Source: Methanobacterium sp. MBAC-LM
GTDB taxonomy: Archaea; Methanobacteriota; Methanobacteria; Methanobacteriales; Methanobacteriaceae
Assembly: GCF_049677355.1 (NCBI RefSeq)
Contig: NZ_CP187261.1
Coordinates: forward strand, 1,815,876-1,839,875
DNA: 24,000 nucleotides
Reading direction: 5' to 3'
Position 1 is the first letter of the stretch, and every line of letters starts with the position of its first letter. A program made the translations under genes and the position numbers. Under the pieces are notes generated by a model that was given only the letters and a program-made list of their open reading frames with translations, made no database searches and had not been told where the DNA came from. Below are positions 528 to 22,433 of this stretch, piece after piece.

Positions 528-2894
528 TCATTTACCCCTTGCTTTTTCCCTAAAGGCCATTGTGGATGGTTCCTGCGGAAGTGCACGTGGTTCCCAACCT
601 GCCTCTTCCAGCATATTCATAACGTCTTTCTTGTAGGTTATAGGGATGTCTTTCTCATTTCTTATAAATTTAGAGATGTCATCAGGTATAGTACCAAAAT
701 ACTTCTTGTGAAGGTCTATATAATGATTTAATTTTATCTGTCTTCCCTTTGGAGTGTCATTAGGCCTTATACATAATTTCGCAATCATCACGGTTGCTTC
801 CCCGCGGTTTTCAGCCGCGTACATCAAGTGTTCAGGTGCTGGTTCTCCTTCAATTACTTCACCAGACCTTAAATCATTGAGGTTCCATTTTTCTTTCTTA
901 TCAGTTCTTCCAAGGTAAAGTCTACGATATTTAGAGCCGTGAGGTCCTACAACAACTGGTATTCCCCATCTGTTAACTCCAGTTGCTATTGCGGCAGCTT
1001 TCTGGGAATAAGCACCCCATGCAACACCGCATGCACCCACTCTATTTAATATGTAATCTGCTATTTCTTCGAAGTTTCCTTCAAGGGGTTTTTGAGCAAA
1101 AATATTGGCTATCTTTATACATGCACCTGAAACATGGGCATTTGAAACGCATGACCCCATGTTTACAAGACCTTTAGCATCGAATTCTCCACCGTATTTT
1201 TCATAGAGTGTTTTTCCTTCCTCATCTCTGTATTCCCCTATAGACATTGCACCACAACCGGTGGTTACGACGATGTAATTTCGCTCAAGGAATTCTTCTG
1301 CCATTTTTGCAACTTCTAAACCGCCTTCAGGATAATTTGAACAGCCTACAAATGCTATAACTCCTGGAATATCTCCAAGAACAATTGGGGCACCTACTCT
1401 TCTTATTTCAACATCCTGAACTGGTCCCCTACCTGCCCTCATATTGTACTTCTGGTCTTTTATGTAATGTTCTCCCACCTTGGTAATCATTGACATGAGT
1501 GGAAGTTCCCTTTCACACTCCTGTTCACACCGGCCACAGGAATAACATGTGTCGTATTCGTACAGCTCAACAAATTTGGAAAAATCGCCTTTACCAGCTG
1601 CAACAACTGCATCCATCATAGGTTTACCATTTGGACATACACGTACACACCATCCACATTCAGTACATTCTTTAGCCATTTCCTGAATTTCATCAAGATC
1701 TGGAAGTATTTTGAGGTTTTCACGTTCATCTGCAATTTTCATTGCTACCCTTGTGGCAACTTCACCAACTTTTTCAGGATCAAGTATTAAAGCCCCTTCA
1801 ATTTCTCTGCAAACAAGTTTTGAAACTATTTCATCCGCATCTTCATCTGTAAGGTCAGGAAGTCCAAGGCACATTTTATCTGTGGTTGCAATAACTGCTG
1901 CTTTATTTTTTACGGCTTCTTCAAGCACATCGGTTCGTATACACTGCTCATCAACAACTATTACATCTGCAACGCCACTTCTAATGAATTTAAGCTGCTT
2001 TGAAAGCGGCCCTACCACTTTAGCTGCTTTGTTATATCTTGAAATATCGATGGCAGCACAGCATATTCCACACACTTCAACTTCTTCTTCAAGACCTTGA
2101 TCTTCCATATAATCCATTATTCCAGCGCCAGGGACTACATTGTGTCCAATACACAGAACTACAGGTTTTTTACTGTCAATTGTTCCAAGCCCCATCTCTA
2201 TCAAAGGAGCATCTTCATCACCTTTAGGCATTCCAAGGGCTACGATCTGTGCAAGATCCCCTGCCTCTCTTGCAAGGTCATCCATAAGTCCTGCATGCAT
2301 TGCTTTTGATTCAAAATCAAGATGATTGCCTTCCTGTCCAGTATGGCAGGCTGAAAGAAGGTGTGATAATTGTTCTTCAGTATAACTAAGTACTTCTTTT
2401 AAATCGCCCAGCTTTTTAGGCTTTTTACCTATAAGTGTCCTTATCAAGGGAGCTTCTATGTCCATATTCATTCCAAGATCAATTGCAAAATCAGCCCCAT
2501 ATTTTTCTATTAAATGGTCAACAAGGTGACGTGCATGTCCAGCATGGGCAGCTGTCCCAATACAACAGGCTAAAAGCACTATTCTTGCTTGCTGAGCCTG
2601 TATATCAATTCCACATGCCCCTTTTTTACCAGTTAAATCACACTTTCCAAATGTACATAAACAGCACATATCACAGAAAGGTGCATAGAATGGTTCATAT
2701 CTTTCCAGTAATTTCATGTCCCAAGATCTTAAATCAGTTACATTAGGTTTAGGGGTCGGCCCCATTGATTCAGGAGCTGTTTCCACTTCCTTTTTTTCAA
2801 CTATTTCACCAATTGAGACTTTGAAATTTTTTGACTTCCAAAAATCATTTTTGAATTCTTTAGGTTTGTTTTTCGGTGTCACAGTAATCACCAA
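528..2894 (-). CDS. cdhA: CODH/ACS alpha subunit CdhA (Ni-Fe-S carbon monoxide dehydrogenase catalytic subunit)
   Basis: 788-aa ORF with N-terminal Cys clusters ([21 protein letters not shown]), two ferredoxin-type 4Fe-4S motifs ([23 protein letters not shown]) and further conserved Cys ([23 protein letters not shown]). It is followed by cdhB. The start is ambiguous between TTG 2894, GTG 2891 and GTG 2882. The GGTGAT at 2892-2887 followed by a 4-nt spacer matches the SD spacing of other genes here and favours GTG 2882. Confidence 0.9.
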
Positions 2895-3513: not shown

Positions 3514-5076
3514 TTAGTTAAACTTATCTCGTTTAAAATAGCCTACTGCAATCAACACTATAAGAGCCAATATTCCTAGACTAGCATAAGGATTACTTTT
3601 TATCGCATTTATAGTGTTTTTAATTGATACTTCCACACCATTTTTTCCACCACTTGATCCTCCACTTAACCCATTAGATTCAAGATTTCCAAATAATCCA
3701 ATTCCCGATCCGGTCCCATTACCGTTAGCAGTTCCGCTACCACTGCCAAGAAAAGAACCGTTATTATTACCTCCAATAGTACCATTACCATTACCAATAG
3801 ACGAGCCATTACCCGAATTTGTTTTTCCACCTGTCTGATTATTTTTATTGGTATCTTCATCGATGAAATCCAACGAGCCTACTTGATCTGAAAATAACAT
3901 ACCGCACATCCCCACCATAGGACATACATGAGTCTGACTAGGGTCATTGGTGCCGTACCAGTTAGCTCCTACTATAAAATCATGAGATAATGCTGGAGAA
4001 CCTCTAATAGAAAACTGTTCATTATTTGTTATACTATTATCCTCAATTTTAATCAATGAATTAGATTCCTGATAATAGGTGCCTGCAATAATTCCATTTC
4101 CTGTTTCAGATGCATCTAAACCAGCAAAAATAGATTTATGGCTGTCTGTAAAATAATTATTACATACTGTATCATTGACACTGTAAGAATTTATATATAA
4201 TCCATTTAAATTCCCAGTGACATTATTTTTAGAAATATAAGTGTTTTTTGTCGTATCCTCTAAAGTTATACCATTTAACCGATTGTTACTGATCTTATTG
4301 TAAGAAACATTAACTTTATCAGTACCCGATAAATAAACCCCATACCCGTTTTTATTGATGTTATTGTCTTTAACAGAAACATTTTTAGAAGAATAAATCG
4401 ATATTCCGCTTAAAGTATTATTTGAGACATTATTTTTTTTTACATTAATACTCTCGGAATTATAAACATGTATTCCAGAGTAAGTATTGTTTGATATCTG
4501 ATTTTCATTTACAGTTATTTTTTTAGAATTTTCAATGTTTATACCATTTCCTTTAGAATTAAACAGACCATTTTTACTGACAGTAACATTGGAAACATTA
4601 TTTAACTTAATTGAACCTTTGTATCCTCCAGAAATATTATTAGAACTAATAGTTATGTTTTTAGCATTCTGGGCAATTATACCATAGTCAGAATTGGTCA
4701 GGATATTGAAGCCTGAAATTACACTTCCAGAACTATTTTTAGCAAAATAGAAAGCAAATGTTTCGGTTATCCCCATATTCGATCCATTGATACCAGTAGA
4801 ACTACTACTGCAGATAATCGTGTTTATATGGCTAATGATGTTCAATTTTTTGTTTATTATTAAAGAGATATTGCTGTAACTGTTTCCCATGAAATTAATG
4901 GTATCCCCTGACTGTGCCCCATCGATTAATGATTGAATGTCATAATTCTGTAGTCCAGAGCTCACATTAATAGTAGCTGCCGAAACTGGATTCAAGCTTA
5001 TTCCAAGAAAAATGACGATAGATAACAGTAAAAATATCGAACAGAAATTTATATTTTTAAAAGAATCTAAACTCAT
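3514..5076 (-). CDS. Secreted, C-terminally membrane-anchored right-handed parallel beta-helix repeat protein (adhesin-like surface protein)
   Basis: Sec-type signal peptide (hydrophobic core, then VSA/A). Many repeats of about 22 aa of the N-I/V-S-x-N...GI type typical of PbH1 beta-helix proteins. About 20 N-x-S/T sequons by hand count. A Gly/Asn/Ser low-complexity linker, then a C-terminal TM helix with a basic tail (LGILALIVLIAVGYFKRDKFN). SD GTGAT lies 3 nt before the ATG. Confidence 0.8.
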   Translation of the reverse strand: MSLDSFKNINFCSIFLLLSIVIFLGISLNPVSAATINVSSGLQNYDIQSLIDGAQSGDTINFMGNSYSNISLIINKKLNIISHINTIICSSSSTGINGSNMGITETFAFYFAKNSSGSVISGFNILTNSDYGIIAQNAKNITISSNNISGGYKGSIKLNNVSNVTVSKNGLFNSKGNGINIENSKKITVNENQISNNTYSGIHVYNSESINVKKNNVSNNTLSGISIYSSKNVSVKDNNINKNGYGVYLSGTDKVNVSYNKISNNRLNGITLEDTTKNTYISKNNVTGNLNGLYINSYSVNDTVCNNYFTDSHKSIFAGLDASETGNGIIAGTYYQESNSLIKIEDNSITNNEQFSIRGSPALSHDFIVGANWYGTNDPSQTHVCPMVGMCGMLFSDQVGSLDFIDEDTNKNNQTGGKTNSGNGSSIGNGNGTIGGNNNGSFLGSGSGTANGNGTGSGIGLFGNLESNGLSGGSSGGKNGVEVSIKNTINAIKSNPYASLGILALIVLIAVGYFKRDKFN

Positions 5077-5417: not shown

Positions 5418-7100
5418 TTGAATAAAAGTATGAAGTCTTTAATAGTCTTCCTTGTTTTCCTATCGATTATCGGTTCTGGAATTTCCAGTGCTTCTGCAGC
5501 TACAGTTACTGTGAAAGATGGAGCAACTAATACAGAAATCCAGTCCATTATTGATGGAGCACAATCAGGAGACACAATAAAATTTCTAGGAAGTGAATAT
5601 GATAACATATCTCTAGTGATAAATAAAACACTGAATTTAGTAGGTGCAGCAGGTGGAACAGCAATAAAAGCCATCAGCAACTGGAGTTATATTCCTTCAA
5701 CTGTACAGAATAATGGTATAAACAATACAGCAGCTTTTTATTTCTTAAATACAGCAGAATGTTCCATATCCGGATTTAATATAACAAGCATGGCCAATTC
5801 AGCCAGCAGCATAGGTTACAACAATACATTGATCTATGCACAAAATGCAAGTAAACTTAATATATACAACAACAACCTGAATTTCTCTTCATGGGGAATA
5901 TATTCCAATGTATGTCCAAACGTAATCATCAATAACAATACTGTCAGCAACATGACCACTACAGGTATTATCAGTTTTGGTTCAGCATACGCATTAATAA
6001 CAAATAATACGGTCTTAAATTGTGCTAATCATGGTATTGATGTAAGGCACGGGCTTGGTCCTAATGCCACAGTTTGTGGAAACTTGATTAATGGTGCCAG
6101 TGAAGGTATCTATTTAATGCACTCTGCAGGACATGATGTCTACAACAATACCATCTTAAATTGCGCATTAAGTTCAATAACAGCATATGGTGCAGGAAAT
6201 ATCAATATAACAAATAATACCATGACTAAATCTCTTGTAGGAGTAATGCTTTCATCTGGTTTCTACAATGTAAGCATACAAAATAACAACTACAGTTTGA
6301 CCACAACTGCGTTCCCTTATACATTCCCTTACTATGTAATGGTAGCTGACAGCAGTACCGGCAGTAAAACTACCGCTAATGGAACATTTACCGACTCTGC
6401 ACGTGAAGTTTCAGATATTTCAATGAGTTCATCTTACTCAAATTCCAGCATAACCAACGGTAAAAGCACCACTTACACTGTAAAAGTTTCAAACAATGGA
6501 AACGGAGCAGCAAGTAATGTCAACATAAGTAAAATTTTACCTTCCTCAAATTACACAAGCTATAAATTGGTAGCTGTTTCTAAAGGTAGTTTTAACTCAG
6601 CCACCGGGACATGGAATGTTGGTAACTTAAGTTCAGGCAATGAAGCCATGATTGTGTTCACTGTAACAGCTAAAAAAGCAGGAAACATATCAACCAGTGC
6701 TTCTGCAAATTACACAGACTATGCCGGTGATAAATCATTAAATACGCTAAAATCAACTTTAACAATAAATAAAGACATTAGATTATCTTATAATAACACA
6801 GTCAGCAGTACCAAAGTTAAAAAAGGCAAATATGTCTACATAGCAAGTGCTGTTAGCAACACAGGAATAGACAAATCAGGTACTGTTAAAATCAAAATAA
6901 CATTACCAGCTGGAATGAAATTAATTGCCGTTAACTATCCATCAGTGTACAATTCAGCCACTAAAACATGGACTTTCACTGTACCTGCATCAAAAGCATA
7001 TGCATTCAAAGTCAAAGCACAGGTCACATCAACAGGAAACAAAAAAATAACATTCAATGACAACGGTAAAATCCAATATAAATATATCACTGGATATTAA
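5418..7100 (+). CDS. Secreted beta-helix repeat protein with two C-terminal DUF11-like repeat domains (adhesin-like protein)
   Basis: Signal peptide ending SASA/A. The N-terminal roughly 50 mature residues are clearly paralogous to the divergent neighbour (IQSIIDGAQSGDTIKFLGSEYDNISLVINKTLNL versus IQSLIDGAQSGDTINFMGNSYSNISLIINKKLNI). Beta-helix N-rich repeats are present. The C-terminus holds two modules resembling the DUF11 conserved repeat domain (TYTVKVSNNGNGAASNVNISKILP...WNVGNL...). There is no C-terminal TM. The TTG start at 5418 is supported by GAGGAT plus a 4-nt spacer. An alternative ATG lies at 5430. Confidence 0.8.
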   Translation: MNKSMKSLIVFLVFLSIIGSGISSASAATVTVKDGATNTEIQSIIDGAQSGDTIKFLGSEYDNISLVINKTLNLVGAAGGTAIKAISNWSYIPSTVQNNGINNTAAFYFLNTAECSISGFNITSMANSASSIGYNNTLIYAQNASKLNIYNNNLNFSSWGIYSNVCPNVIINNNTVSNMTTTGIISFGSAYALITNNTVLNCANHGIDVRHGLGPNATVCGNLINGASEGIYLMHSAGHDVYNNTILNCALSSITAYGAGNINITNNTMTKSLVGVMLSSGFYNVSIQNNNYSLTTTAFPYTFPYYVMVADSSTGSKTTANGTFTDSAREVSDISMSSSYSNSSITNGKSTTYTVKVSNNGNGAASNVNISKILPSSNYTSYKLVAVSKGSFNSATGTWNVGNLSSGNEAMIVFTVTAKKAGNISTSASANYTDYAGDKSLNTLKSTLTINKDIRLSYNNTVSSTKVKKGKYVYIASAVSNTGIDKSGTVKIKITLPAGMKLIAVNYPSVYNSATKTWTFTVPASKAYAFKVKAQVTSTGNKKITFNDNGKIQYKYITGY

Positions 7101-7137
7101 ACTGTAAATTAACAGTTTAAATTTCTTTATTTTTTTT
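7097..7137 (+). terminator. Hairpin plus T8 tract downstream of the adhesin-like gene
   Basis: TTAAACTGT-aaatta-ACAGTTTAA forms a 9-bp stem at 7097-7120 that overlaps the TAA stop. A run of eight T follows at 7130-7137. Oligo-T is the usual archaeal termination signal. Confidence 0.5.
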
Positions 7138-7182
7138 GAATTATTCAGTTTTACAAAATTAAATTTTAAAACGGTGGATAAC

Positions 7183-7890
7183 ATGTTAAATTTAATATGG
7201 CAGTTGGGGATACTATCGGTAGTTCTATTGTTCGGCGTTAAAATCGGCCTTGCTATGGGGTTTTCGGGCCTTTCAAAAAAAGTTGCAGTTTCCATAGCAG
7301 CAGGTTACGGTTTGGGAATATATATTCTGTCTTTTATAATCTCAAGATATACCAGTACGTTTTATAACTTCATATCTGATTATAATTCTGCCATTTTTCT
7401 AATAATGGCATTAATTATCATATATACCGGTTTTTATACAATTAAAGAATGGAAAATACACCAAAAAAATCATGCTAAGGCCACATGTGCGGCCATGATA
7501 GCTCCAAGTCCATGTTGTTTTGGAATGATTGGGGCAGCAATAATAATGATATCTCCAATAATAGGAGCTTCTAGCGTAGTTATTGGACAATATGCAGGGG
7601 TTTTTTTAAGTTTAACCATATTAATAGTTTATTTTGCTTCAGAGGCTATAACCCGGATCACAAAAAAACCATATCCCATTCTACTGGGTAATTTTATGCT
7701 TTTTGCAGGATTCTATTTCATAGCATCAGTAATTGTGATTCCCAATATAAATAAAGTTCTTGAGTCTCCAATGAGCCCCATGAACATACCATCTAGCGAA
7801 ACATTAACTTACGTATCAATATTTGCCATCATATTGATATTCAGCGGGTTTTATGTAACAAAAAAACGAAGTAGTCTAGTACAGAAATAA
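7183..7890 (+). CDS. Polytopic membrane protein, DUF2162-like predicted transporter with an intramembrane Cys motif
   Basis: Highly hydrophobic product with multiple predicted TM helices. An APSPCCFG motif, preceded by HQKNHAKATC, lies in or next to a hydrophobic segment. ATG 7183 is preferred over the track start GTG 7174 because GGTGGA sits 4 nt upstream of the ATG. It is first in an operon with the ExbB-like and ExbD-like genes. The family name is recalled from the conserved methanogen gene trio, not searched. Confidence 0.6.
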   Translation: MLNLIWQLGILSVVLLFGVKIGLAMGFSGLSKKVAVSIAAGYGLGIYILSFIISRYTSTFYNFISDYNSAIFLIMALIIIYTGFYTIKEWKIHQKNHAKATCAAMIAPSPCCFGMIGAAIIMISPIIGASSVVIGQYAGVFLSLTILIVYFASEAITRITKKPYPILLGNFMLFAGFYFIASVIVIPNINKVLESPMSPMNIPSSETLTYVSIFAIILIFSGFYVTKKRSSLVQK

Positions 7891-7903
7891 AAGAGGTGAT
7901 TTA

Positions 7904-8578
7904 ATGACAGCAATTCTTGGAAGCGAAGCATTAAGCAGTTTAATGTATGTAATAGCACAGAGTTTAATTATACCTGTTATTGCAGCGCTGTTAATATTCA
8001 TGGTGTATACGATTATACAGGTTGGAGGAATATTATCTGAGTATTCCAACAGAATCAAAACCGATGTAAACGAAATTGAAGAACTTTTAAACAGTATTTC
8101 CACTCAGGAAACTCCTGATGGAATTAAGGAAGTTGCAGAAAGAAGCAATCTCCCAAAAAGCCACAGGGAAATACTGAGCAAAATAGCAGTAAATAGCAAT
8201 CTAGGCGAAAAATCAAGGGAAGCATTTGCCAGAAAGTTAATTGAAGCAGAACAAATTAATGCAGCCAAACGCATCGAAAAAACTGATGTTATCGCGAAAA
8301 TTGGCCCCGCTATAGGACTAATGGGAACATTGATACCCCTTGGACCCGGGCTGTCTGCCTTAGGGTCTGGAGATATAGCCTCCCTGTCACAAAATCTAGT
8401 GGCTGCATTTGATGCAGCAATTGTCGGTCTAGGAGCAGCTGCAGTTGCATTCACAATATCTAGAATAAGAAGAAGATGGTACGAAGATCAACTTTCAACT
8501 CTTGACACTTTAGCAGAATCTACATTGGAGGCATTACAAAATGCTAAGAAGAAGACCAAAACTAATGGATACCAATGA
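7904..8578 (+). CDS. MotA/TolQ/ExbB proton-channel family protein
   Basis: 224 aa with an N-terminal TM, a soluble insert, then two C-terminal TMs carrying the family signature (IGPAIGLMGTLIPLGPGLSALG). A strong SD GAGGTGAT lies 3 nt before the ATG, and the gene starts 13 nt after the upstream stop. Confidence 0.8.
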   Translation: MTAILGSEALSSLMYVIAQSLIIPVIAALLIFMVYTIIQVGGILSEYSNRIKTDVNEIEELLNSISTQETPDGIKEVAERSNLPKSHREILSKIAVNSNLGEKSREAFARKLIEAEQINAAKRIEKTDVIAKIGPAIGLMGTLIPLGPGLSALGSGDIASLSQNLVAAFDAAIVGLGAAAVAFTISRIRRRWYEDQLSTLDTLAESTLEALQNAKKKTKTNGYQ

Positions 8579-8873
8579 AGAAATCGATCCAATGTCATAT
8601 GCAGTAAACATGGTTGACTGCATGTTAGTTTTAGCTGTAGGATTTTTGATATTTACAGTAATGTCCTTTGGGATGCAGAGCGTTGTATTCAGTAATGCAA
8701 CACCACAGGAAAAACAAGAAATCATGAAAACTGTTCAGCAAACAGTTGAAATCCAAGAGGGAAAAGAAGTAAACACCACTTCTCAAACCAAATCAGGCGA
8801 AGGTAGTGGGTATGAACAAGTAGGAACCGTCTATAAAGATCCAAAAACTAATAAATTGATTATGGTTAACTAA
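8541..8873 (+). CDS. ExbD/TolR-like single-pass protein (DUF2149-like)
   Basis: Basic N-terminus (MLRRRPK), then one TM helix whose cytoplasmic edge reads MVDCMLVLAVGFLIF. This closely parallels the ExbD/TolR segment F-I-D-V-M-L-V-L-L that contains the essential proton-relay Asp. The extracytoplasmic tail is only about 70 aa. GGAGG lies 10 nt upstream of ATG 8541, and the ORF overlaps the ExbB-like ORF by 38 nt. An alternative ATG lies at 8565. Confidence 0.65.
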   Translation: MLRRRPKLMDTNEEIDPMSYAVNMVDCMLVLAVGFLIFTVMSFGMQSVVFSNATPQEKQEIMKTVQQTVEIQEGKEVNTTSQTKSGEGSGYEQVGTVYKDPKTNKLIMVN

Positions 8874-8918: not shown

Positions 8919-8943
8919 TGCAGATTAATTCTTTTAATCTGCA
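8919..8943. terminator. Perfect 10-bp-stem hairpin at the convergence point of the ExbD-like and FmdE-like genes
   Basis: TGCAGATTAA-ttctt-TTAATCTGCA at 8919-8943. The right arm includes the stop codon and last codons of the FmdE-like gene. On the minus strand it is followed by TTTTATTAATTTTTTG. On the plus strand a T6 run lies at 8892-8897. Confidence 0.45.
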
Positions 8944-9536
8944 CAAAACTGACAGACAGGTTTGCCATCCTCAATAATTTCTTTTTTATCCATTACATGT
9001 TCGCCACAGACTGAACATGTTACTATATGCTGTGGAATGCCAGGAATTCCAGTATCATCTATTTGCAATTCCACTAAAGAAAGCAGATCCTCATCTGGCA
9101 TTTCAGATAGTTTTTTAATTGCAGACTTCTTTTCTTCCATAACCTTAGGCATATTTTTTTCTTTAGCTAGTTCTGCTACATTTTTAAACCATGTCCAAAG
9201 GCCCGGAGTGGAATCCACCAGATCATCTTTTGCAGATACCCTTACTGCTTCTCCAGTAGTCATATCCACAAATGTAGCCACAAATTTACCATAATCTCTG
9301 CATTTTAGAGTTCTGCGGCCAACAGTACATCCTGTTATTGCCTGTATAGCATCAGGCATGCATCTATCTGTTTCTACAGTTACTATAAGGTTCTCATTTG
9401 GTTCTAGAGGATCCATATTAAGCTTTTTCATAGCTGCGATACTCATTCGGGTCCCCATAATTACGCCCGGACACACTTCACCGTGCAAATCTTTTGCTCT
9501 ATTAAGTAAAACTTCATAATCATTCATATTTTTCAC
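8934..9536 (-). CDS. FmdE-family protein with a C-terminal Zn-ribbon
   Basis: The N-terminal HGEVCPGVIMGTRMS and DRCMPDAIQAITGCTVG motifs are typical of the FmdE domain. The C-terminus has CSVCGEHV...KPVCQFC (CxxC...CxxC). SD GGTGA lies 5 nt before the ATG, and a TATA-like TTTAAATATATAAG (minus strand) lies about 30-40 nt upstream. Confidence 0.8.
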   Translation of the reverse strand: MKNMNDYEVLLNRAKDLHGEVCPGVIMGTRMSIAAMKKLNMDPLEPNENLIVTVETDRCMPDAIQAITGCTVGRRTLKCRDYGKFVATFVDMTTGEAVRVSAKDDLVDSTPGLWTWFKNVAELAKEKNMPKVMEEKKSAIKKLSEMPDEDLLSLVELQIDDTGIPGIPQHIVTCSVCGEHVMDKKEIIEDGKPVCQFCAD

Positions 9537-10012
9537 CTTTACTTATTTCAAAGTTGTATTTAACGTCTTATATATTTAAACATGACGAAAAAAGTAATTC
9601 AAACTTTTAAGATGAACTTTAATCAATTAAATATAAGTTATAATTTTCTCGTGATGTTTTCAAATGAAACTTGAAAAGTTCTTTCAAATTATCACCTGAT
9701 AAAATAGACATCAAAAAAACTGGTTTATGATATGGCTTTCAAAATTTAAAATATTTATAACACTCTACTCAATTAATTTATTAAGATCAAAAAGAAAATA
9801 ATTTATATAATGAATTCTATTTACAAAATTAGTTCATAGTTCAAGCTTTTGTTATCTAAAATTGATTATTACTATTTCTACCAAAAATCCCTTTTTAGTA
9901 GTACTTTTTTATTACATTTTTTACTAAAATCGACAAATAAGTAATACTTACGAAAATGTTTATATTATAAAAAATAGAACCTATTTTGTATAAATCAAGG
10001 AGATTTAATAAT

Positions 10013-10687
10013 ATGCATATACCTAACGGTTTTATTCCTTTGTGGCAGTGTGCCATTTATTTTGTTATACTTTTTATTGCATTGTATTTCTCCCAGAGAT
10101 GGGCTAGAAAGAATCTTGATGAACGGTCAGTTCCTTTAATGGCTGTTTTCGCCGCTGGTATATTTGCTATAATGTCCATGAATATTCCCGTAGCTTTTGG
10201 TACAAGCGGACATATGGTAGGTGGAGCTTTAATCGCGCTTGTGTTCTGTGCTCCAGAAGCGGCAGTTATAGTATTCACATTAGTACTCTTAGTTCAAGCT
10301 TTATTCTTCGGTGATGGAGGAATAACAGTTTTAGGTGCTAACGTACTTAATATGGGCATTATAGGAGGATTTGTAGGACTTTATGGATTCCGTGCCCTTA
10401 GAAAAATAGTAGGAAAAATACCTGCTATAGCCATAGCATCATGGTTATCAATATTTATAGCAGCAGAAGCAGTTGCAGTTGAAATGTGGCTGGCTGGAAC
10501 ATTCCCGCTCATAGCAGGACTTGAAATGATGGGAATATACCACGCACTAATAGGGATCATCGAGGCAATTCTAACGGTTGTTGTAATTATGGCATTAGAA
10601 AATGTGCGCCCAGACTTACTGGCATGGAACCGGAAGAAGAAAACAGATGATACAAAATCTGAAAAACTAGAGGTGGCATCAAAATGA
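10013..10687 (+). CDS. cbiM: ECF transporter substrate-capture (S) component, CbiM/NikM family (Ni or Co)
   Basis: Start placed at ATG 10013 so that the product begins MHIPNGF. The Met1-His2 N-terminus is the metal-ligating element of CbiM/NikM. A conserved GTSGHMVGG His motif and a multi-TM profile are present. AAGGAG lies about 10 nt upstream. The track start TTG 9986 would bury the N-terminus. Confidence 0.85.
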
Positions 10688-10989
10688 GCCCAAGAGATAA
10701 GAAATTTGTCCTGGCAGGTTTAGCAATCTGTATAATAATTGCAGTTCTAGCACCATTTATAGCTTCAAGCAATCCAGATGGGCTAGAAAAAACCGCAGAA
10801 GATATATCCACTACTCAAGAGTCAAACAGCTACAACGCACCAATGTCAGACTACATGATACCTCTTTTAGGGGAAGACAATCCTTACGGTGGAGTACTAG
10901 CGTTAATTATAGGCATTTTAATAACTTTAGCAATCGCATACATTGCAGCAGTTTTATTGCGAAGAAGAAAACCAGAATCATTGGAATAA
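10684..10989 (+). CDS. PDGLE-domain small membrane protein (NikN/CbiN-like auxiliary component)
   Basis: 101 aa with two TM helices flanking an extracytoplasmic loop that contains the literal motif PDGLE ([13 protein letters not shown]). Its start overlaps the cbiM stop as ATGA (10684-10687), which indicates translational coupling. Confidence 0.75.
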
Positions 10990-11010
10990 ATATTTTCAGG
11001 AGATAGATCA

Positions 11011-11808
11011 ATGAACACCAATTCAATTCTCAATTTAGAAAATGAAACTATGAAGGAAAGTTTTCTCCATCTGTTAGATGGACGAATCAAATTAGTGATA
11101 CTGGTGTTCATTACAATTTATGCGGTTTACACTACAGAACCGATGATTCTTGTTTTACTTGAAGTTTATCTTTTATTATTGATTTACTTGTCTCAAATCT
11201 CATTTAAAACTACTTTAAAGAGAGTATTATTACTTTTGCCATTTGGAGGTTTGATTATAGTATTTCAACCATTCATACATCCAGGTAATGTAATGTATGC
11301 TTTGCCGTTTGGTATCAACGTTACTTATGAAGGTTTAACATTTGGAATACTATTAATGTCGCGCCTTATTGTTTCTCTAACTGCAATCGTGCTTTTATCA
11401 TCCATAAGTCCTATGCAGGAGGTAGTGCAATCCTTCAGGAAGTTAGGTATGCCCAAAGAATTTGCAATGATATTCAGCCTCATGATCAGATTTTTGTTCA
11501 TGTTCTTCGATGAATTAGACGCAATAAGAAATGCACAGGCAACCCGAAACTTTGACATATTTAACAAAAAAACACCATACATGTGGAGAATGAAACAAAT
11601 TGGTTACACCATAATGATGATGTTTTTAAGGGCTTATGAACGTGGTGAAACTGTTTACCTTAGCATGGTAAGCCGGGGGTATTCAGATAAATCACAGCTT
11701 TATAATGATGAAAACAAGAAGATAGGTTCAAAAGAGTATGTTTTCACAGGGATAACTGTGGCACTGGTAGTATGCCTTGAAATTGCCCATTATTTTTTAA
11801 TTGTGTAA
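11011..11808 (+). CDS. cbiQ: ECF transporter transmembrane (T) component CbiQ/EcfT
   Basis: 265 aa, polytopic. The coupling-helix region has Arg-containing motifs (MIRFLFMFFDELDAIRNAQATRNF) typical of CbiQ/EcfT. GGAGAT lies 6 nt before the ATG. It directly follows the M and N components. Confidence 0.8.
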   Translation: MNTNSILNLENETMKESFLHLLDGRIKLVILVFITIYAVYTTEPMILVLLEVYLLLLIYLSQISFKTTLKRVLLLLPFGGLIIVFQPFIHPGNVMYALPFGINVTYEGLTFGILLMSRLIVSLTAIVLLSSISPMQEVVQSFRKLGMPKEFAMIFSLMIRFLFMFFDELDAIRNAQATRNFDIFNKKTPYMWRMKQIGYTIMMMFLRAYERGETVYLSMVSRGYSDKSQLYNDENKKIGSKEYVFTGITVALVVCLEIAHYFLIV

Positions 11809-11957: not shown

Positions 11958-13031
11958 TTATATTTGCGGTTCCAGCCTTTTAATCATAAATGCTAAAAAT
12001 CCAACGATCAGTGGGAAAAGGAACAGGTATAAGATTAAAAGAACCACTGGAGGGAACATACTGCCGCCCATAACAGTTGATGCCGCAATCAGCATGATCA
12101 TGAGAATTACAGGCCCAAGTATAGCGACAAACATGTATATCATAGTGAATGAATTTAATTTTTGAGCGTAATCCTTCAGTTTCATTCTCATTTCATATGC
12201 TACATCTTCTGCTATAACATTGAGTGTCCTTGAAAGATCCCCACCACTTGCTAAAGTTCGGGTTATCTGATGAACTGCTCTTTTCATCCCATCAGAGTCT
12301 ATCCGTTCGCTCATATCCATTAATGCATTTTCTGTTGTTTCCCCATACTTAATTTCCTCTAATGTTCGTGCAAATTCTTCAGAAAGTGGACCGTATCCAG
12401 ATAAAGCTACAGATCTCATACTTTCATGAAGACCAAGTCCTGCACGAAGTTCAGTTGCCATCTGCCTTAAAGCGTATGGCAGTTCTCTTGATGCTTCATT
12501 TGACTTTTTCCCTTTCTGCATTTTAGGCAGGAAAATGATCATAACAGACATTAAAAATATTAACATTCCAAATACAAGACCTATCTCGATTCCAAAACCG
12601 AGAACGGTCATTATCACCAGGATTAAAACAAATGATACTGCACCCATTCCCATAATTAATTTAGGGTCTATGCCTTCTTTTTCTTCTTCTTTAAGAAGTT
12701 CTTCAAGTGATGCCTTCTGATATGCATCCCTTTGAGCCTTATCTTCTTTAGGTTTATCAGCTCGTTCATATTTTTTATCGATGAGTTCCTTAAACATCTG
12801 AATCTCATCTTTATCCATTTTCATCCGTTCTATAACACGAGGAGACTCCTTATTTAACGATCCCAGCCCCCTAGATCCAAGACTTCGAGATCCAAGACCT
12901 GATCGGGACTTTGCTCTCATATCGTTTAGCTTACTTACAGGTACCTGTACGCCCTCCCCTACCTTCTTACTTGAGTCAATCGTAGCTCCGCCGAGCATGT
13001 CGAAGATTTTTTTAAGGCCATCAAAAGCCAT
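11958..13031 (-). CDS. Type II secretion system F-family platform protein (TadB/TadC or FlaJ-like), single T2SS-F domain
   Basis: The C-terminal roughly 200 aa match the T2SS-F pattern: a cytoplasmic helical domain ([23 protein letters not shown]...[12 protein letters not shown]) flanked by TM helices. The N-terminal roughly 120 aa are a charged extension with an (S/G)LGSR x3 repeat. GGTGAT lies 3 nt before the ATG, and the gene starts 22 nt after the ATPase gene. Confidence 0.75.
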
Positions 13032-13053: not shown

Positions 13054-14937
13054 CTATAATATCTTATCTAAAACTTCATCAGGGTCTCTATAATAGTCAC
13101 TGATCCATTCTCCAACTTCTGTAATGGACCTAATGTTGTTATCTCCCATGTACTCCAGTACTAACCTTCTCTTTTCAATTTCCTCTTCAATTTCAGTGAT
13201 GGTTATTCCACGAAGTTCAGCCATTTCCCGTAGTGTCTGGCTTGCAATACCAACATATTCTACCTTATCAACCATGTTGTTCCATTCAAATACTCTGTTC
13301 AGCTGCACATTACCTTCTTCCATACCTACAACTTCTGCAACTTCAGTTATTCTCCTTATAGACCCTCCTTCAGGTCGATACATCCTATTCTGCATTATTA
13401 TAAAGTCTAAAGCAGGTATCATAATATTTGGAACATTCATTGGAGGATTTATAAGCCTTGTTATTGTTTCACGCGCAGTATTAGCGTGAAGTGTACCAAA
13501 TCCAGAGTGTCCAGTATTTAAAGCTGTGAAAAGAGTTATTGCTTCACCACCCCTTACTTCCCCTACAATTACCCTGTCCGGCCTCTGCCTGAGGGAGTTT
13601 TTAACCAGGTGATCCATGTTCAGTTCTCCTTTTCCCTCAATGTTAGGTGGACGGGTTTCCATACGCAAAACGTGGGCGTGAGGTAGCTGCAGCTCTAATG
13701 TATCTTCTATAGTGATTATTCTCTCACGAGGAGGAGTAAATGAAGTTACCGTGTTCAATGTTGTAGTTTTACCAGAACCAGTACCTCCAGCTATAATTGC
13801 GTTACATGGCTTAACTCCAAGCCCATCAACACAAACCCATAAAAATCCTGCTAAATGAGATGACATGGTTTTAAAGTTAATTAAATCAATAACAGTTAAT
13901 GGATCTTTACGGAATTTTCGTATAGTTAAAGATGAACCATCTGCAGATACCGGAGGGATGGTTGCATTTACCCTTGAACCATCTTCCAACCTTGCATCCA
14001 GGATAGGTGTTTGCTGGTCTATTCTACGGTTTACCTGCCTTGCAATAACATCTATAATCGCTTTAATATCAGTATCATCATCAAAAACAACATTTGTCTG
14101 CATCATTCCCAGTTTTCGGTGGTAGACAAACACAGGGTTGCTTGTTCCAATTACCATTATTTCTTCCAGATCATCATCTTTAATCATAGGATCCAGTTCA
14201 CCATACCCCAGCATTTCCTGAGATATTTGTGCTGCAAGTTTATCAGTGTCCCTTACTCCCTTCATTTTCAGGAATTCTTTAACTTCACCTGCAAATGACT
14301 CTTCATTAACTTTGAAATTGTCACCTTGAGAAACAGCAACTTCAACCAGCTTTTCACGAATCTCATTAAGCAGCTGCCTTTCCCTTTCGGTAAATTTAGG
14401 GACAGACACGTTGTAAAGAGGAATTAATCCATCTTCAATTATTTCAGCTTTTATTCCGCTTGAGGTCTTTTTCATCTTTTTAGGACGTCTTTTTGGCTTT
14501 TCAGCGGTTTTTTCTGCAGGCTCTTTAAACATTCTACTTGAATCAGATTTGCTTATGGAGCCTCCCATTATGTTGTCCAGTTTGAACCCATCGTCATCAT
14601 CATCGAAAAAAGATCTTCTTTTATGTTCCGATTTATCTTCCAGATAATCAGATCGTCCGCCCAAATCTTGACTTTCAGATTTGTCCTCTGCATATTCTGA
14701 TCTTCCCATCAAATTCTGTTTTTGAGATCTATCCTCTGCATATTCTGACTTTTCCAACAAATCCTGCCTTTCTTTTCTGTGTTCAGTCTGCATTGGTTCG
14801 TATTCTTGCCTTTTAACTGGTTCTTCGGTTACTTCATTTTCCCGTTCATCATCGTCCTTGTTAAAATCATCACTGGAACCAAATTCCCCTAAAAGATCCC
14901 TGAGTATTTCTTTCCGCTTATTTTTCATATGCCTCAC
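13054..14937 (-). CDS. Type II/IV secretion system ATPase (FlaI/TadA/VirB11-like hexameric ATPase) with a long acidic repeat-containing N-terminal extension
   Basis: Walker [13 protein letters not shown], Asp box ITIEDTLEL, Walker [13 protein letters not shown] and His box [12 protein letters not shown]. The first roughly 190 aa are low-complexity and acidic. The likely start is ATG 14928 (GTGAGG 3 nt upstream) rather than the track start GTG 14937. Confidence 0.85.
14608..14751 (-). repeat. In-frame 48-bp (16-aa) tandem repeat, about 3 copies, in the 5' part of the secretion ATPase gene
   Basis: The exact 16-mer CCTCTGCATATTCTGA occurs at 14685-14700 and 14733-14748, a 48-nt period. The peptide units are [32 protein letters not shown] and [16 protein letters not shown]. 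Confidence 0.8.
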
Positions 14938-19154: not shown

Positions 19155-20531
19155 ATGGTTAAGGAGAAAAACGTCCAGTTTGTAATTATAGCAGCTGTAA
19201 TTACAGCTATTGGAGGAATGTTATTTGGATATGATACTGGAGTAATTTCCGGGGCAATATTATTTATCAGAGAATCTTTTTCACTTTCGAGTACAGCTCA
19301 AGAAATTGTTGTAAGTTCTGTACTCATTGGTGCCGTAATAGGTGCAAGTATAAGTGGACTCTTAGCTGATAAATACGGCCGGCGGATAATGGTTATAGTT
19401 GCAGCCACTATTTTTGGAATAGGTGCTATATTCACTGCATTAACTCCAGAAGTTTATGCTTTAATTGCAGGTAGAATTGTAGTAGGCATAGCTATTGGAA
19501 TAGCATCATTTATTGCTCCCCTCTATATTGCCGAGGTTGCACCAGTTAGCATAAGAGGTGCACTTGTATCATTAAACCAGCTCGCCATAACAATAGGTAT
19601 AGTTATTTCATACCTTGTGGATTTTGCTTTTGCCCCAAGTGGAGGTTGGCGCTGGATGCTGGGATTAGCTGTAGTCCCAAGTATCATACTGGGAATTGGT
19701 ATGTATTTAATGCCACCAAGTCCTCGCTGGCTTTACAGTAAAGGGAGAATTGACAAAGCACGCTCTGTCCTTGAACGTATAAGAATGACCAAAAATGTAA
19801 GTGAAGAAATGAAAGAAATTAGAGCGAGTCTAGTCTGTGAACAGGAATGTAAATGGTCAGAAATATTAGATCCGGTGGTTAGACCCGCATTAATAATAGG
19901 CATAGGGCTTGCGGCGTTTCAACAGTTGACCGGTATTAACACAGTTATTTATTATGCACCGACCATCCTTGAATTTGCAGGTTTTCAATCGGCCGCTGTT
20001 TCAATACTTGCAACTGCAGGAATTGGTATGATAAACGTAATCATGACAGTTGTAGCGATTTCATTAATAGACAGAGTTGGAAGGAGGCCATTACTCTTAA
20101 TTGGCCTTATTGGAATGATAATCAGCCTTGCAATATTAGGGATAGCTTTCGTTTTACCGGGATTATCAACTTCTTTAGGTTTACTCGCTGTTATAAGTTT
20201 AATGCTGTATGTCGGTTCATTTGCCATAGGTTTAGGGCCTGTTTTCTGGTTAATGATTTCAGAAATTTATCCGCTGCGGATAAGGGGCCGTGCAATGAGC
20301 ACTGCTACAATAGTTAACTGGGGCACTAACTTGGTGGTGGCAATAACGTTTTTATCACTTATTCAACTAATTGGAACCCCAGGCACGTTCTGGCTTTACG
20401 GTATAATTGGAATTATTACATGGGTTTTTGTTTATTTCCTTGTACCTGAAACCAAAGGAAAATCTCTTGAAGAAATTGAAATGGAGTTAAGGGCAGGAAA
20501 ACACATTCAAGAAATGAAAAATGCAAAATAA
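19155..20531 (+). CDS. MFS transporter, sugar porter family
   Basis: 12-TM profile with sugar-porter signatures: GYDTGVISGA, DKYGRR, PPSPRWL, GRRPLLL and the C-terminal PETKGKSLEEIE. GGAG lies 8 nt before the ATG. Confidence 0.85.
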   Translation: MVKEKNVQFVIIAAVITAIGGMLFGYDTGVISGAILFIRESFSLSSTAQEIVVSSVLIGAVIGASISGLLADKYGRRIMVIVAATIFGIGAIFTALTPEVYALIAGRIVVGIAIGIASFIAPLYIAEVAPVSIRGALVSLNQLAITIGIVISYLVDFAFAPSGGWRWMLGLAVVPSIILGIGMYLMPPSPRWLYSKGRIDKARSVLERIRMTKNVSEEMKEIRASLVCEQECKWSEILDPVVRPALIIGIGLAAFQQLTGINTVIYYAPTILEFAGFQSAAVSILATAGIGMINVIMTVVAISLIDRVGRRPLLLIGLIGMIISLAILGIAFVLPGLSTSLGLLAVISLMLYVGSFAIGLGPVFWLMISEIYPLRIRGRAMSTATIVNWGTNLVVAITFLSLIQLIGTPGTFWLYGIIGIITWVFVYFLVPETKGKSLEEIEMELRAGKHIQEMKNAK

Positions 20532-20546
20532 AGGTTGAATTCTACC

Positions 20547-22433
20547 ATGGAAAATAAATTCAAAGATATTGAAAATTACGGCATTATAGGGAACCTTGAA
20601 ACATGTGCCCTTATTGGTAGTGATGGATCTATAGATTGGATGTGTCTCCCATACCTGGAATCGCCTTCAATTTTTGCAGCAATTTTAGATAACAAACGAG
20701 GCGGACATTTTGCTATTCACCCTGTCTCAAAATTCAGCTCATTTCAGGCTTATATTAAAGAAACCAATATCCTTCAAACTACATTCAATACTCCCTTTGG
20801 AATGGTTACAATAACTGATTTTATGCCCGTCAATCTTTATGACGGGACTAAACACCATAGAACTCTTTATCGGAAAGTTAAGTGCATTGAAGGACATATT
20901 CGGCTTGAATTAAGTTTCAAACCACGTTTTAATTATGCCAAGGATGTTCCTGATTTCAAGTTAATAGATGGAGGAGCAATATGCAGTTTTGAAGATAATG
21001 AGCTATTTTTAAATACAGCTGTTCCACTCAAAATCGAAGAGGATGAAATAACAAGCCAGTTCAACATGAGAAAGGACATGGAAATATGGTTTGTTCTTCA
21101 ATATAACCAGCAGGATCATTATTCTCCAGAGTATCCTCCAGATTATGATAAGTTTAATAGAAAATTGGATACCCTGCAGGAATACTGGCAAAACTGGACT
21201 TACAAATGCCACAAAATCTGTATTCTTGAAGATATCTGGCATGATATCATTGCCCGCTCTGGTTTAGTACTTAAATTACTGGCAAATCCAGAAAGCGGGG
21301 CAATTGCAGCTGCTGCCACAACATCCCTCCCCGAATGTACAGGAGGAGTAAGAAATTGGGACTACCGCTATGCATGGATTAGAGATTCGGCATATACTAT
21401 ACAGGCGCTTTTCCACCTTGAACATGTACAAGAATCCCAGGATTACCTGAGATGGATTAACAGCATTATAAAACAGGACACTCATCCTTCAGATATCCGC
21501 ATAATGTACCCACTCCATAAAGACGAGGCCATTGAAGAACAGATGCTGGAATATCTTTCAGGCTACAAACAATCAAGCCCTGTCAGGATAGGAAATGCTG
21601 CCTTTAACCAAAAACAGCTCGATATTTATGGGGAACTAATAAATGCCATTTACGATACCACCCGTTATGGGAAGGATATTTCAGATAAAACATGGGAATT
21701 TATAAGAAAATTTGTAGATTATATCTGCGAAGTTTGGAACACTAAAGATCGTGGAATATGGGAAATAAGGGGTGAACCCCGCCATTATGTACATTCAAAA
21801 CTTATGTGCTGGGTAGCTGTTGATCGCGGGATCAAAATAGCAAAATTTAAGAAGACTGAGACTTCCTGCAACTGGGAAGAAACAAAAAACGAGATAGAAA
21901 CTGCAATACTGGAAAAAGGTTTTAATAAAGAATTAAACAGTTTTGTTCAGTCCTTTGATTCAGATGCCATCGATGCAACAACACTGCTCATTCCAAGAAT
22001 GGGTCTTCTGCCCTATGACGATCCGCGAGTTCAAGGCACCATTGAAGCTGTGATGAAAAATTTAATGACTGAAAAAGGCCTTGTCTACCGCTACAAAAAT
22101 GAAGACGGACTTCCCGGAGATGAAGGGTGTTTTTTACTTTGTTCTTTCTGGCTAGTTGATTCACTTGCTCTTTCTGGAAGGTTAGATGAAGCAATAAGTA
22201 TATTTGTTAATGTGCTCCAGTTAATGAGCCCTTTAGGTCTCCTGGCTGAAGAAATAGATCCCAAAACGGGTAAATTACTCGGAAATTTCCCTCAAGCGTT
22301 CAGCCACATAGGTCTAGTTAACAGCGCATTATATATAGGGATAGCCAGAGGTAGGAAACATAAAGGGCCTAAACCTCAAGGGTTCAAACACAGCGTGCCT
22401 TATAAAAAGGAAAAATTCAAAATAAAGAAATAG
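20547..22433 (+). CDS. Glycoside hydrolase family 15 protein (glucoamylase, glucodextranase or trehalase type), cytoplasmic
   Basis: The N-terminal YGIIGNLETCALIGSDGSIDWMCLPY, then WDYRYAWIRDSAYT, RGIWEIRGEP (general-acid Glu context) and LLAEEIDPKTGKLLGNFPQAFSHIGLV (general-base Glu context) are GH15 hallmarks. No signal peptide. The start is either ATG 20547 or TTG 20535, 4-16 nt after the transporter stop. Confidence 0.85.
   Translation: MENKFKDIENYGIIGNLETCALIGSDGSIDWMCLPYLESPSIFAAILDNKRGGHFAIHPVSKFSSFQAYIKETNILQTTFNTPFGMVTITDFMPVNLYDGTKHHRTLYRKVKCIEGHIRLELSFKPRFNYAKDVPDFKLIDGGAICSFEDNELFLNTAVPLKIEEDEITSQFNMRKDMEIWFVLQYNQQDHYSPEYPPDYDKFNRKLDTLQEYWQNWTYKCHKICILEDIWHDIIARSGLVLKLLANPESGAIAAAATTSLPECTGGVRNWDYRYAWIRDSAYTIQALFHLEHVQESQDYLRWINSIIKQDTHPSDIRIMYPLHKDEAIEEQMLEYLSGYKQSSPVRIGNAAFNQKQLDIYGELINAIYDTTRYGKDISDKTWEFIRKFVDYICEVWNTKDRGIWEIRGEPRHYVHSKLMCWVAVDRGIKIAKFKKTETSCNWEETKNEIETAILEKGFNKELNSFVQSFDSDAIDATTLLIPRMGLLPYDDPRVQGTIEAVMKNLMTEKGLVYRYKNEDGLPGDEGCFLLCSFWLVDSLALSGRLDEAISIFVNVLQLMSPLGLLAEEIDPKTGKLLGNFPQAFSHIGLVNSALYIGIARGRKHKGPKPQGFKHSVPYKKEKFKIKK

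Follow-up and report, generated by a model that had tools for sequence, protein, structure and literature searches.

What can a motor of the ExbB/ExbD kind do in a cell that has no outer membrane? ExbBD, TolQR and MotAB motors are understood as sending membrane energy across the periplasm; Methanobacteriaceae have no outer membrane. The question is raised by a 24,000-nucleotide stretch of Methanobacterium DNA (the window), in which both the list of open reading frames (ORFs) and the raw sequence give three co-oriented genes at 7183-8873. Gene 1 encodes a DUF2162 membrane protein, gene 2 an ExbB-like protein and gene 3 a DUF2149 protein. The nearest contig is from Methanobacterium sp. UBA8, whose gene 3 counterpart is 94% identical at the amino-acid level. 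The preferred reading, with a probability of about 45%, is that a proton-driven motor energises tail-anchored extracytoplasmic metalloproteins and that DUF2162 serves as the metal conduit. On this view, the locus would encode an ion-driven motor of the Ton/Tol type that suits cells lacking an outer membrane.

The core of this module is formed by the ExbB-like gene and DUF2149, with DUF2162 as an accessory. One genome per species was scanned, which gave 418 loci with a DUF2149 relative. The best 80 of the 418 were fetched; with three loci from a contig look-up and the window itself they make up a set of 84, in which ORFs were called and clustered by BLASTP. DUF2149 is next to the ExbB-like gene in 81 of the 84 loci, and DUF2162 lies immediately 5' of the ExbB-like gene in 66 of them, giving the same trio as in the window. 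A reciprocal start from DUF2162 homologues recovers this trio too. The co-occurrence is far above chance. There are several paralogous modules per genome (three in OY969779.1), with one motor copy per partner: each partner gene has its own adjacent motor.

The genes of the trio are tightly coupled, which confirms what the first-pass annotation of this DNA had described from the letters alone; its interpretation of the locus is supported in part. Genes 1 and 2 are separated by a gap of 13 nt (7891-7903), within which GAGGTGAT at 7893-7900 provides a Shine-Dalgarno (SD) sequence. Gene 3 overlaps gene 2 by 38 nt and has GGAGG 9 nt 5' of its ATG; the overlap recurs in relatives, with 44 nt in L090 and 32 nt in L092.

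Four gene arrangements recur among the loci. Type A (about 35 loci, including Methanothermobacter) has one or two CobN-type chelatase genes (PF02514, 1100-2200 amino acids (aa)) ahead of DUF2162, the ExbB-like gene and DUF2149. CobN is downstream of the module in L070, L077 and L082, which are loci of Bacillota and Actinomycetota. Type B, to which the window belongs, has a divergent pair of NosD-like beta-helix genes followed by the trio, and is kept in Methanobacterium and Methanobrevibacter; the divergent c4(-)/c4(+) pair 5' of the trio is kept in L005 and L007-L013. Type C has PKD/DUF11 surface proteins and then the ExbB-like gene and DUF2149, without DUF2162; its loci adjoin FecCD, ABC ATPase, Peripla_BP_2, FmdE, ModABC-like and fmdBCA-like genes. 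Type D has a secreted FmdE-domain protein of about 1000 aa, CbiM and a small membrane protein ahead of the trio.

The pair is also found in Clostridia and Coriobacteriia; no DUF2162 occurs in any Firmicutes or Coriobacteriia locus from the contig look-up. A profile of the bacterial-type DUF2149 returns 2533 proteins, the best of which are from Clostridia, Peptococcaceae and Coriobacteriales. Among eight bacterial contexts inspected, L084, L086 and L094 have FecCD, ABC ATPase, Peripla_BP_2, a Big_2 protein, MotA_ExbB and DUF2149 in a single string, and large SLH, Big_2, CHB_HEX_C or Shr-like heme-receptor proteins flank the pair in L087 and L096-L099. The clostridial and coriobacterial hosts are monoderms; the missing outer membrane is therefore a rule for the ExbB-like/DUF2149 clade and not a peculiarity of methanogens. 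Two labels in the set are probably due to mis-binned archaeal contigs. L073, labelled Bacteroidaceae, has the gene order and ORF lengths of Methanobrevibacter intestini L075; L074, labelled Bacillales, mirrors the Methanosphaera loci L079 and L083.

Gene 2 does carry the MotA/TolQ/ExbB signature that had been noticed in it. It matches MotA_ExbB (PF01618) with 37.5 bits against a cut-off of 22.9 (E 2.3e-9, aa 103-200), and its topology is that of ExbB and TolQ. Hydrophobic segments at aa 16-34, 129-147 and 165-183 form three transmembrane (TM) helices: TM1 is followed by an 80-aa charged cytoplasmic loop (13 K/R, 15 D/E) and a TM2-TM3 hairpin, with GLMGTLIPLG located in TM2. In an alignment that combines 81 archaeal and three bacterial copies with E. 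coli TolQ, hardly any variation is seen in the motifs GLMGTLIPLGPG, AFD and RRRWYE. The TM2 Thr of GLMGTLIPLGPG aligns with TolQ T145 (GLMGT vs GLFGT). At the position of TolQ T178 in TM3, the window has Ala and its relatives have Ala or Thr; an invariant Asp is found two residues earlier. A search of PDB with the gene 2 sequence gave no match. The MotA_ExbB protein at 5387-6991 of L099 has 534 aa, about twice the usual length, which could mean that the A subunit is fused to another domain; its gene is followed by DUF2149 and then by a gene for a 1517-aa tail-anchored protein.

DUF2149 is a minimal ExbD, with one TM helix that carries a conserved Asp and with a C-terminal beta-hairpin. Gene 3 matches this family (PF09919) with 78.6 bits against 27.1, covering 90 of 92 model positions. 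It had been described from the letters as ExbD/TolR-like; this stands as far as its single-pass topology and its Asp are concerned, but it is not a member of PF02472. The match to PF02472 (ExbD) is sub-threshold at 15.5 bits against a cut-off of 25.4, and that to NCBIfam TIGR02801 tolR is weak (E 0.004, 17.8 bits against a cut-off of 127.3). The Asp in question, Asp26 (codon 8616-8618), is contained in MVDCMLVLAVGF. Orthologues conserve it: 120 of 122 representatives of 50%-identity clusters keep Asp26, within the motif P-x5-N-[LM]-x-D-x-M-L-V-[LF]-A-x-G. An hhalign alignment puts D26 on ExbD D25 and TolR D23, with a match that is limited to the TM helix and of low probability.

The AlphaFold2 (AF2) model of gene 3 has a mean predicted local distance difference test score (pLDDT) of 62, with 86-90 in the TM helix. 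It consists of a basic N-terminus, the TM helix, a short helix, a disordered linker and the C-terminal beta-hairpin, which is formed by a second conserved motif, G95-x-V-Y-x-D-P-x-T-G-K-L. The globular periplasmic domain typical of ExbD is not present in this model. A comparison of the DUF2149 profile with PDB returned no ExbD, TolR or other related structure.

Candidate partners of the motor are encoded next to it. Secreted proteins always surround the pair, and most of them bear a shared C-terminal tail; an N-terminal signal peptide is found in every family encoded just 5' of the module. The tail consists of [KS]-x-Y-E-[VI], 12-20 Ser/Gly-rich residues and a TM helix that terminates with G-Y-F-[KR] and basic residues. 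Its invariant positions are the Glu and the G-Y. The tail is common to five unrelated ectodomain families, and its bearers include CobN, NosD-like, DUF11/PKD, FmdE-domain and Big_2 proteins. Among ORFs of at least 100 aa within the fetched loci, a hidden Markov model (HMM) of the tail matches 81 of the 320 at gene positions -6 to +2 from the ExbB-like gene and 0 of the 507 elsewhere in the same loci (Fisher P = 3e-37). The matches include 48 CobN, 14 DUF11/PKD, eight NosD-like and seven FmdE-domain proteins. Of the 67 loci whose upstream sequence amounts to 6 kb or more, 60 have a tail-bearing protein.

The bacterial CobN proteins beside the module contain K-A-Y-E-I-E or K-G-Y-E-I-E-V. Many partners in Firmicutes and Coriobacteriia have W-R-[VM]-Y-[EQD]-[MI], NPL, a TM helix and Arg residues, and at minimum there is a C-terminal TM anchor; W-R-V-Y-E-M is found in many bacterial partners.

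In the window, the candidate output partner of the motor is the product of 3514-5076 (-). This NosD-like protein has hydrophobic segments at aa 9-27 and 496-514 and matches the tail HMM with E 4e-12; its tail reads G-V-E-V-S, a linker and YASLGILALIVLIAVGYFKR. The first-pass annotation had stated that no TonB-, TolA- or peptidoglycan-binding-like partner is encoded here. This holds, as the window ORFs scanned with Pfam include no TonB (TonB_C), TolA, TonB-dependent receptor or peptidoglycan-binding domain, but the absence of any partner is not supported: a tail-anchored secreted protein is encoded within the conserved cluster.

A mechanism can be proposed from these parts. The ExbB-like and DUF2149 subunits would assemble with a 5:2 stoichiometry. 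Proton flow past the Asp would cause rotation or conformational cycling of this complex, and the work would pass via the tail helix, through a predicted contact, to the anchored extracytoplasmic protein; the Y-E-V strand of the tail may pair with the DUF2149 beta-hairpin. The anchored protein would be the NosD-like beta-helix protein (3514-5076) in the window and a CobN-type chelatase or dechelatase in paralogous loci. The motor would supply energy outside the cell, where there is no ATP, so that a metal or metallo-tetrapyrrole can be loaded, extracted or handed over. DUF2162 would carry the ion across the membrane, replacing the FecCD/Peripla_BP_2 importer of the modules without DUF2162.

A number of points weigh against this reading. 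The putative contact between tail and motor is deduced from gene association, and the tail could be a general surface anchor. The tail HMM was built from tails of the same loci, chosen regardless of position, and the Fisher tests overstate independence because the loci are phylogenetically clustered and come mostly from Methanobacteriaceae. Seven Methanobrevibacter-type loci have no tail-HMM match; several of these have a different tail and in the others none was identified. The tail in the window is a variant (V-E-V, not Y-E-V) on a divergently transcribed gene, and the second NosD-like protein of the window (5418-7100) has no C-terminal anchor. NosD and Beta_helix matches are common among surface proteins of Methanobacteriaceae. 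Finally, the Cys motif of DUF2162 discussed below is not universal: in Methanobrevibacter, the copies that go with NosD-like genes lack Cys altogether.

The trio recurs near genes for trace metals, as the first-pass annotation had stated: CbiMNQ and FmdE are present in the window, and CobN, CbiM, ModABC and fmd genes are present elsewhere. FmdE clusters (c18/c20) are found in 17 of the 67 loci, type-D loci have FmdE-domain proteins that are secreted and bear the tail, and Shr-like heme receptors are among the bacterial neighbours of the pair. Among the 67 loci compared, CobN, NosD-like genes and CbiM are found only in those with DUF2162; for CbiM the counts are 16 of 52 loci with DUF2162 and 0 of 15 without. 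The FecCD/Peripla_BP_2 importer shows the reverse pattern, with 1/52 loci against 12/15 (Fisher P = 9e-10, not phylogenetically corrected). This exclusion fits DUF2162 as a membrane passage for a bare metal ion. DUF2162 would be the passage of bare-metal modules, and the ABC importer that of chelate modules.

Among the type-C loci, L023, L036, L038, L040, L041 and L069 directly adjoin Molybdopterin, GXGXG and Amidohydro_3 genes, which resemble formylmethanofuran dehydrogenase B, C and A; ModABC-like genes recur in others, namely L001-L003, L020-L022, L025, L028 and L065. The fmd-like and ModABC-like neighbours of type C hint at a link to Mo/W.

Gene 1 was correctly assigned as DUF2162-like: it matches PF09930 over the full model length (positions 1-223 of 223) with 222.6 bits against 34.4 (E 5e-66). 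Its AF2 model is an all-helical bundle of 7-8 helices (pLDDT 74, predicted TM-score 0.64), which has no significant fold match among solved structures. The motif APSPCCFG (aa 107-114) had been likened to the CPC/SPC metal site of P1B-ATPases. The likeness does not extend beyond the motif, as Pfam gave no P-type ATPase domain and the DUF2162 model matches no solved fold. PCPCCF[GT] is found in 107 of 120 close DUF2162 homologues. In the window, the second Cys is replaced by Ser109 (AGT, 7507-7509); the two closest homologues (P0121 and P0122) share the change, so it is a real lineage variant, and a sequencing error is ruled out by its presence in two independent homologues. Bacterial DUF2162 copies have LPCPFC. 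On these grounds, together with the Methanobrevibacter copies, the motif marks a DUF2162 subfamily and not the whole family, and its role as an essential site is not supported. A 234-aa protein (c7) downstream of the module in M. formicicum was considered as a diverged DUF2162 and was rejected on comparison.

MTH672, which is adjacent to MTH673, is taken here to be the type member of DUF2162. MTH673 has been listed by Kaster et al. as a CobN-like candidate nickel chelatase (PMC3087415). The papers searched contain no mention of DUF2162, and none of them ties MotA/TolQ/ExbB proteins to methanogens.

The importer pattern can also be read in favour of the mechanism first suggested for this locus, in which the stator directly opens or drives DUF2162 as a permease for metal uptake, energised by the proton motive force, with no extracytoplasmic partner. 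The adjacency of CbiM to the module in DUF2162 loci only, the mutual exclusion of DUF2162 and ABC importer, the Cys-rich intramembrane motif, the 13-nt gap to the ExbB-like gene and the adjacency of the two genes in 66 loci are all consistent with it. Of this reading, DUF2162 as a permease is consistent with the mutual exclusion. DUF2162 as an obligatory target of the stator is not supported, as the pair occurs without it in type C and in every Firmicutes/Coriobacteriia locus from the contig look-up. The Cys residues are also missing from Methanobrevibacter copies and reduced by one in the window, the fold matches no known transporter, and the shared tail on secreted neighbours is left unexplained. 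As a complete account, a directly driven permease is unlikely.

In a second alternative, the module is a machine for the sorting, anchoring or release of surface proteins. The tail would be the sorting signal, the motor would move or cleave the cargo and DUF2162 would perhaps be a processing enzyme, by analogy with the C-terminal domain (CTD) and PorLM of the type IX secretion system (T9SS), with LPXTG and sortase, or with PGF-CTERM and archaeosortase. A single tail on unrelated ectodomains is typical of sorting signals, and the build of the tail is tripartite, with motif, TM helix and basic end; PorLM/GldLM offers the precedent of a motor of the same superfamily with C-terminal-signal cargo, and DUF2162 is polytopic with conserved Cys. 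However, each cargo has its own adjacent motor, which differs from one machine serving scattered cargo, and none of the known sorting signals (LPXTG, PGF-CTERM and similar curated models) matches the tail. Many tail-containing modules lack DUF2162, the Cys is not universal, and the context is consistently one of metal or tetrapyrrole uptake and not of surface proteins in general. A sorting function is accordingly judged improbable.

Very improbable is a Tol-like role in envelope maintenance (tethering or remodelling of pseudomurein or S-layer), or a generic ion channel or homeostasis function, with coincidental surface and metal neighbours: TolQR homology and the frequent large wall-associated neighbours with SLH, PKD or DUF11 point that way, but DUF2149 has a beta-hairpin only and no wall-binding domain, the multiple paralogous modules of a genome each have distinct metal-related neighbours, and the hmu homologues of Bacteroidota are under iron and heme regulation (PMC10434189).

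Table 1. Positions of the motor genes, their candidate partner and other features in the window.
Feature	Position	Strand	Basis
Gene 1, DUF2162 polytopic membrane protein, 235 aa	7183-7890	+	PF09930
Gene 2, ExbB/TolQ-type subunit, 224 aa	7904-8578	+	PF01618
Gene 3, DUF2149, minimal ExbD/TolR-like, 110 aa	8541-8873	+	PF09919
Cys motif C102-x6-S109-P-C111-C112 in DUF2162	7486-7518	+	Family consensus C-x6-C-P-C-C-F-G
Secreted NosD-like right-handed beta-helix protein, 520 aa, signal peptide and tail	3514-5076	-	Beta_helix, NosD 73.6 bits
Tail of the beta-helix protein: GVEVS (3625-3639), linker, TM helix (3535-3591), GYFKR and basic residues	3517-3657	-	
Second secreted beta-helix/NosD-like protein, DUF11 repeats, 560 aa, signal peptide	5418-7100	+	Pfam DUF11, Beta_helix, NosD
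AT-rich spacer, 18% GC, with T-run, SD GGTGGAT and inverted repeat	7101-7182	+	Sequence
FmdE-domain protein with C4 zinc ribbon, recurrent module neighbour	8934-9536	-	Pfam
CbiM, CbiN (PDGLE) and CbiQ, Co/Ni ECF-type uptake components; context, outside the motor	9986-11808	+	Pfam

The second NosD-like protein is encoded directly 5' of the trio, a position kept in type-B loci. Its aa 461-552 give a weak match to DUF1775 (20.7 bits against a cut-off of 25), which is presumably a YcnI-type copper-binding domain. In the spacer that follows, the SD of gene 1 lies just 5' of its ATG (7183), and the GTG at 7174 falls within this SD; upstream of gene 1, only the start and the SD are kept in nine related loci. 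The inverted repeat at 7148-7172 had been put forward as an operator. It is present, but an equal repeat arises in 62% of shuffles of the 82-nt spacer, which is chance level, and the nine relatives do not keep it; the operator is therefore rejected. Shared palindromes were sought in the other intergenic regions and none were found. L008, L009 and L013 contain, between the beta-helix gene and DUF2162 and about 60 nt 5' of the latter, a hairpin with perfect arms of 10-11 nt (CCTAATTA...TAATTAGG) followed by a T-run. It resembles a terminator or attenuator; the window has the T-run only.

Downstream of the trio, the closest type-B relatives of the window (L005-L013) have a DUF169 (PF02596) gene after DUF2149; the window and L004 have the opposite-strand FmdE zinc-ribbon gene instead. 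There is no CbiO ATPase gene after CbiMNQ, where the next gene, 11958-13031 (-), encodes a T2SSF-type pilus/archaellum assembly protein. In the Methanobacterium loci L092/L093, a gene for a protein with PsbP-like and Sortase (PF04203) domains (13723-14709 (-)) lies a few genes 3' of the CobN-DUF2162-ExbB-DUF2149 module.

Two other regions of the window are of interest in their own right. Upstream of the surface-protein genes, 528-2894 (-) encodes a 788-aa CdhA-like protein of the Prismane/CO-dehydrogenase family with an inserted 4Fe-4S dicluster domain. At 19155-22433, a gene with a Sugar_tr/MFS transporter match (E 2e-127) directly precedes a GH15 glucoamylase/trehalase-like gene; such a pair of sugar transporter and glycoside hydrolase is unexpected for a hydrogenotrophic methanogen.

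Several known systems resemble the module in part. With TolQ-TolR-TolA it shares the superfamily, a weak TIGR02801 match and an Asp aligned on TolR D23. It differs in that TolA, TolB, Pal and peptidoglycan-binding domains are absent from the window module, and in having multiple paralogous copies per genome that are tied to metal genes. GldLM/PorLM of type IX secretion is a motor of the same superfamily which serves cargo with a C-terminal element. In T9SS, however, one motor serves many scattered cargoes with a cleaved beta-sandwich CTD, and an outer membrane is needed; in the module, every partner comes with a motor of its own next to it, and the C-terminal element is a TM tail.

The partners themselves have relatives that are powered in other ways. 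Class I chelatases such as CobN and ChlH rely on the AAA+ proteins CobST and ChlID; NosD relies on the ABC-type NosFY. CobN, ChlH and NosD are large metal-handling proteins; the neighbours of the module are homologues of CobN and NosD, but ones that carry signal peptides and are extracytoplasmic. The recurrent neighbours of the module loci include no genes for AAA+ or NosF-type ATPases, and an ion-driven motor working outside the cell would therefore be a coherent model.

The closest known system is hmuSTUV of Bacteroidota. The hmuYRSTUV locus is iron- and heme-regulated and ends with HmuS, the membrane protein HmuT, HmuU and HmuV (PMC11681262, PMC10434189, PMC13227078); HmuU is a MotA/TolQ/ExbB protein and HmuV a DUF2149 protein (PMC11681262, PMC10434189). 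The ExbB-like and DUF2149 genes of the window are adjacent in the same way as those for HmuU and HmuV. The order CobN, membrane protein, ExbB-like, DUF2149 is that of archaeal type A, in which DUF2162 can be likened to HmuT by position; HmuT is described inconsistently, as a permease in some papers and as ATPase-like in others. HmuS of B. thetaiotaomicron is a CobN-like heme dechelatase with helix anchors at both the N- and C-terminus; it requires no ATP, has its peak activity in the membrane fraction and performs 1-2 turnovers if purified without its anchors (PMC12583661). In the HmuS study, the assumption is that the TonB-dependent receptor HmuR is energised by HmuU and HmuV (PMC12583661), and HmuT, HmuU and HmuV have been assumed by authors to energise HmuR or to transport heme.

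The window differs from hmuSTUV in having NosD-like beta-helix proteins and not CobN, in having no HmuY or HmuR, and in being archaeal. CobN was sought in the 24-kb window with Pfam and was not found; it is present in about 35 paralogous or orthologous loci. Bacteroidota HmuT, HmuU and HmuV were sought as well: tblastn of plasmids gave no match, cluster look-ups gave Proteobacteria, and the DUF2149 profile gave Clostridia and Coriobacteriia only. The tail profile does not match the HmuS PDB chain, a construct without the anchors. The presence of the type-A gene order in archaea and monoderms, which have no TonB-dependent receptor, argues that the motor serves the CobN-type or tail-anchored protein generally.

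If the preferred reading of a motor that energises tail-anchored metalloproteins is true, it would explain the ATP-free work of secreted CobN-like enzymes, including the stalling of HmuS after 1-2 turnovers without anchors, and would account for many unexplained CobN paralogues of methanogens. It would also explain how scarce Ni, Co, Fe, Mo/W or tetrapyrroles are acquired by methanogens and Gram-positive anaerobes, and give roles to two DUF families. A stator phylogeny covering bacteria only leaves the homologues in cells without an outer membrane as "unknown function" (PMC12505986). The present locus and its relatives make the role of such homologues testable, with a minimal B subunit containing the Asp, a dedicated partner gene, and a shared tail as possible coupling element. 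A wider claim, which is more doubtful, is that archaea and monoderms have a TonB-independent Ton-like system. In this system the motor would grip the tail and mechanically power enzymes or receptors, replacing the AAA+ motor of CobN and the ABC motor of NosD, and DUF2162 would be a new metal channel family coupled to the motor.

The module and the Ton system itself both have a 3-TM PF01618 subunit beside a single-pass subunit, with the TM Asp of the DUF2149 subunit aligned with ExbD D25; both have translationally coupled genes and a nutrient context (iron, heme, corrinoid, other metals), and in both the presumed output is via a single-pass membrane-anchored protein. In contrast to the Ton system, the outer membrane, the TonB-dependent receptor and TonB are absent here (no TonB_C match), and DUF2149 is below the PF02472 cut-off and without the ExbD periplasmic domain. 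The candidate outputs are anchored by a C-terminal and not an N-terminal helix and are themselves enzymes or binding proteins, and the ExbB-like clade has its own invariant GTLIPLGPG, AFD and RRRWYE. As TonB, the receptor and the ExbD domain are absent, the module is not a Ton system; nor is it categorically new. The most fitting class for it is that of the Ton/Tol/Hmu ion-driven motors, as a variant.

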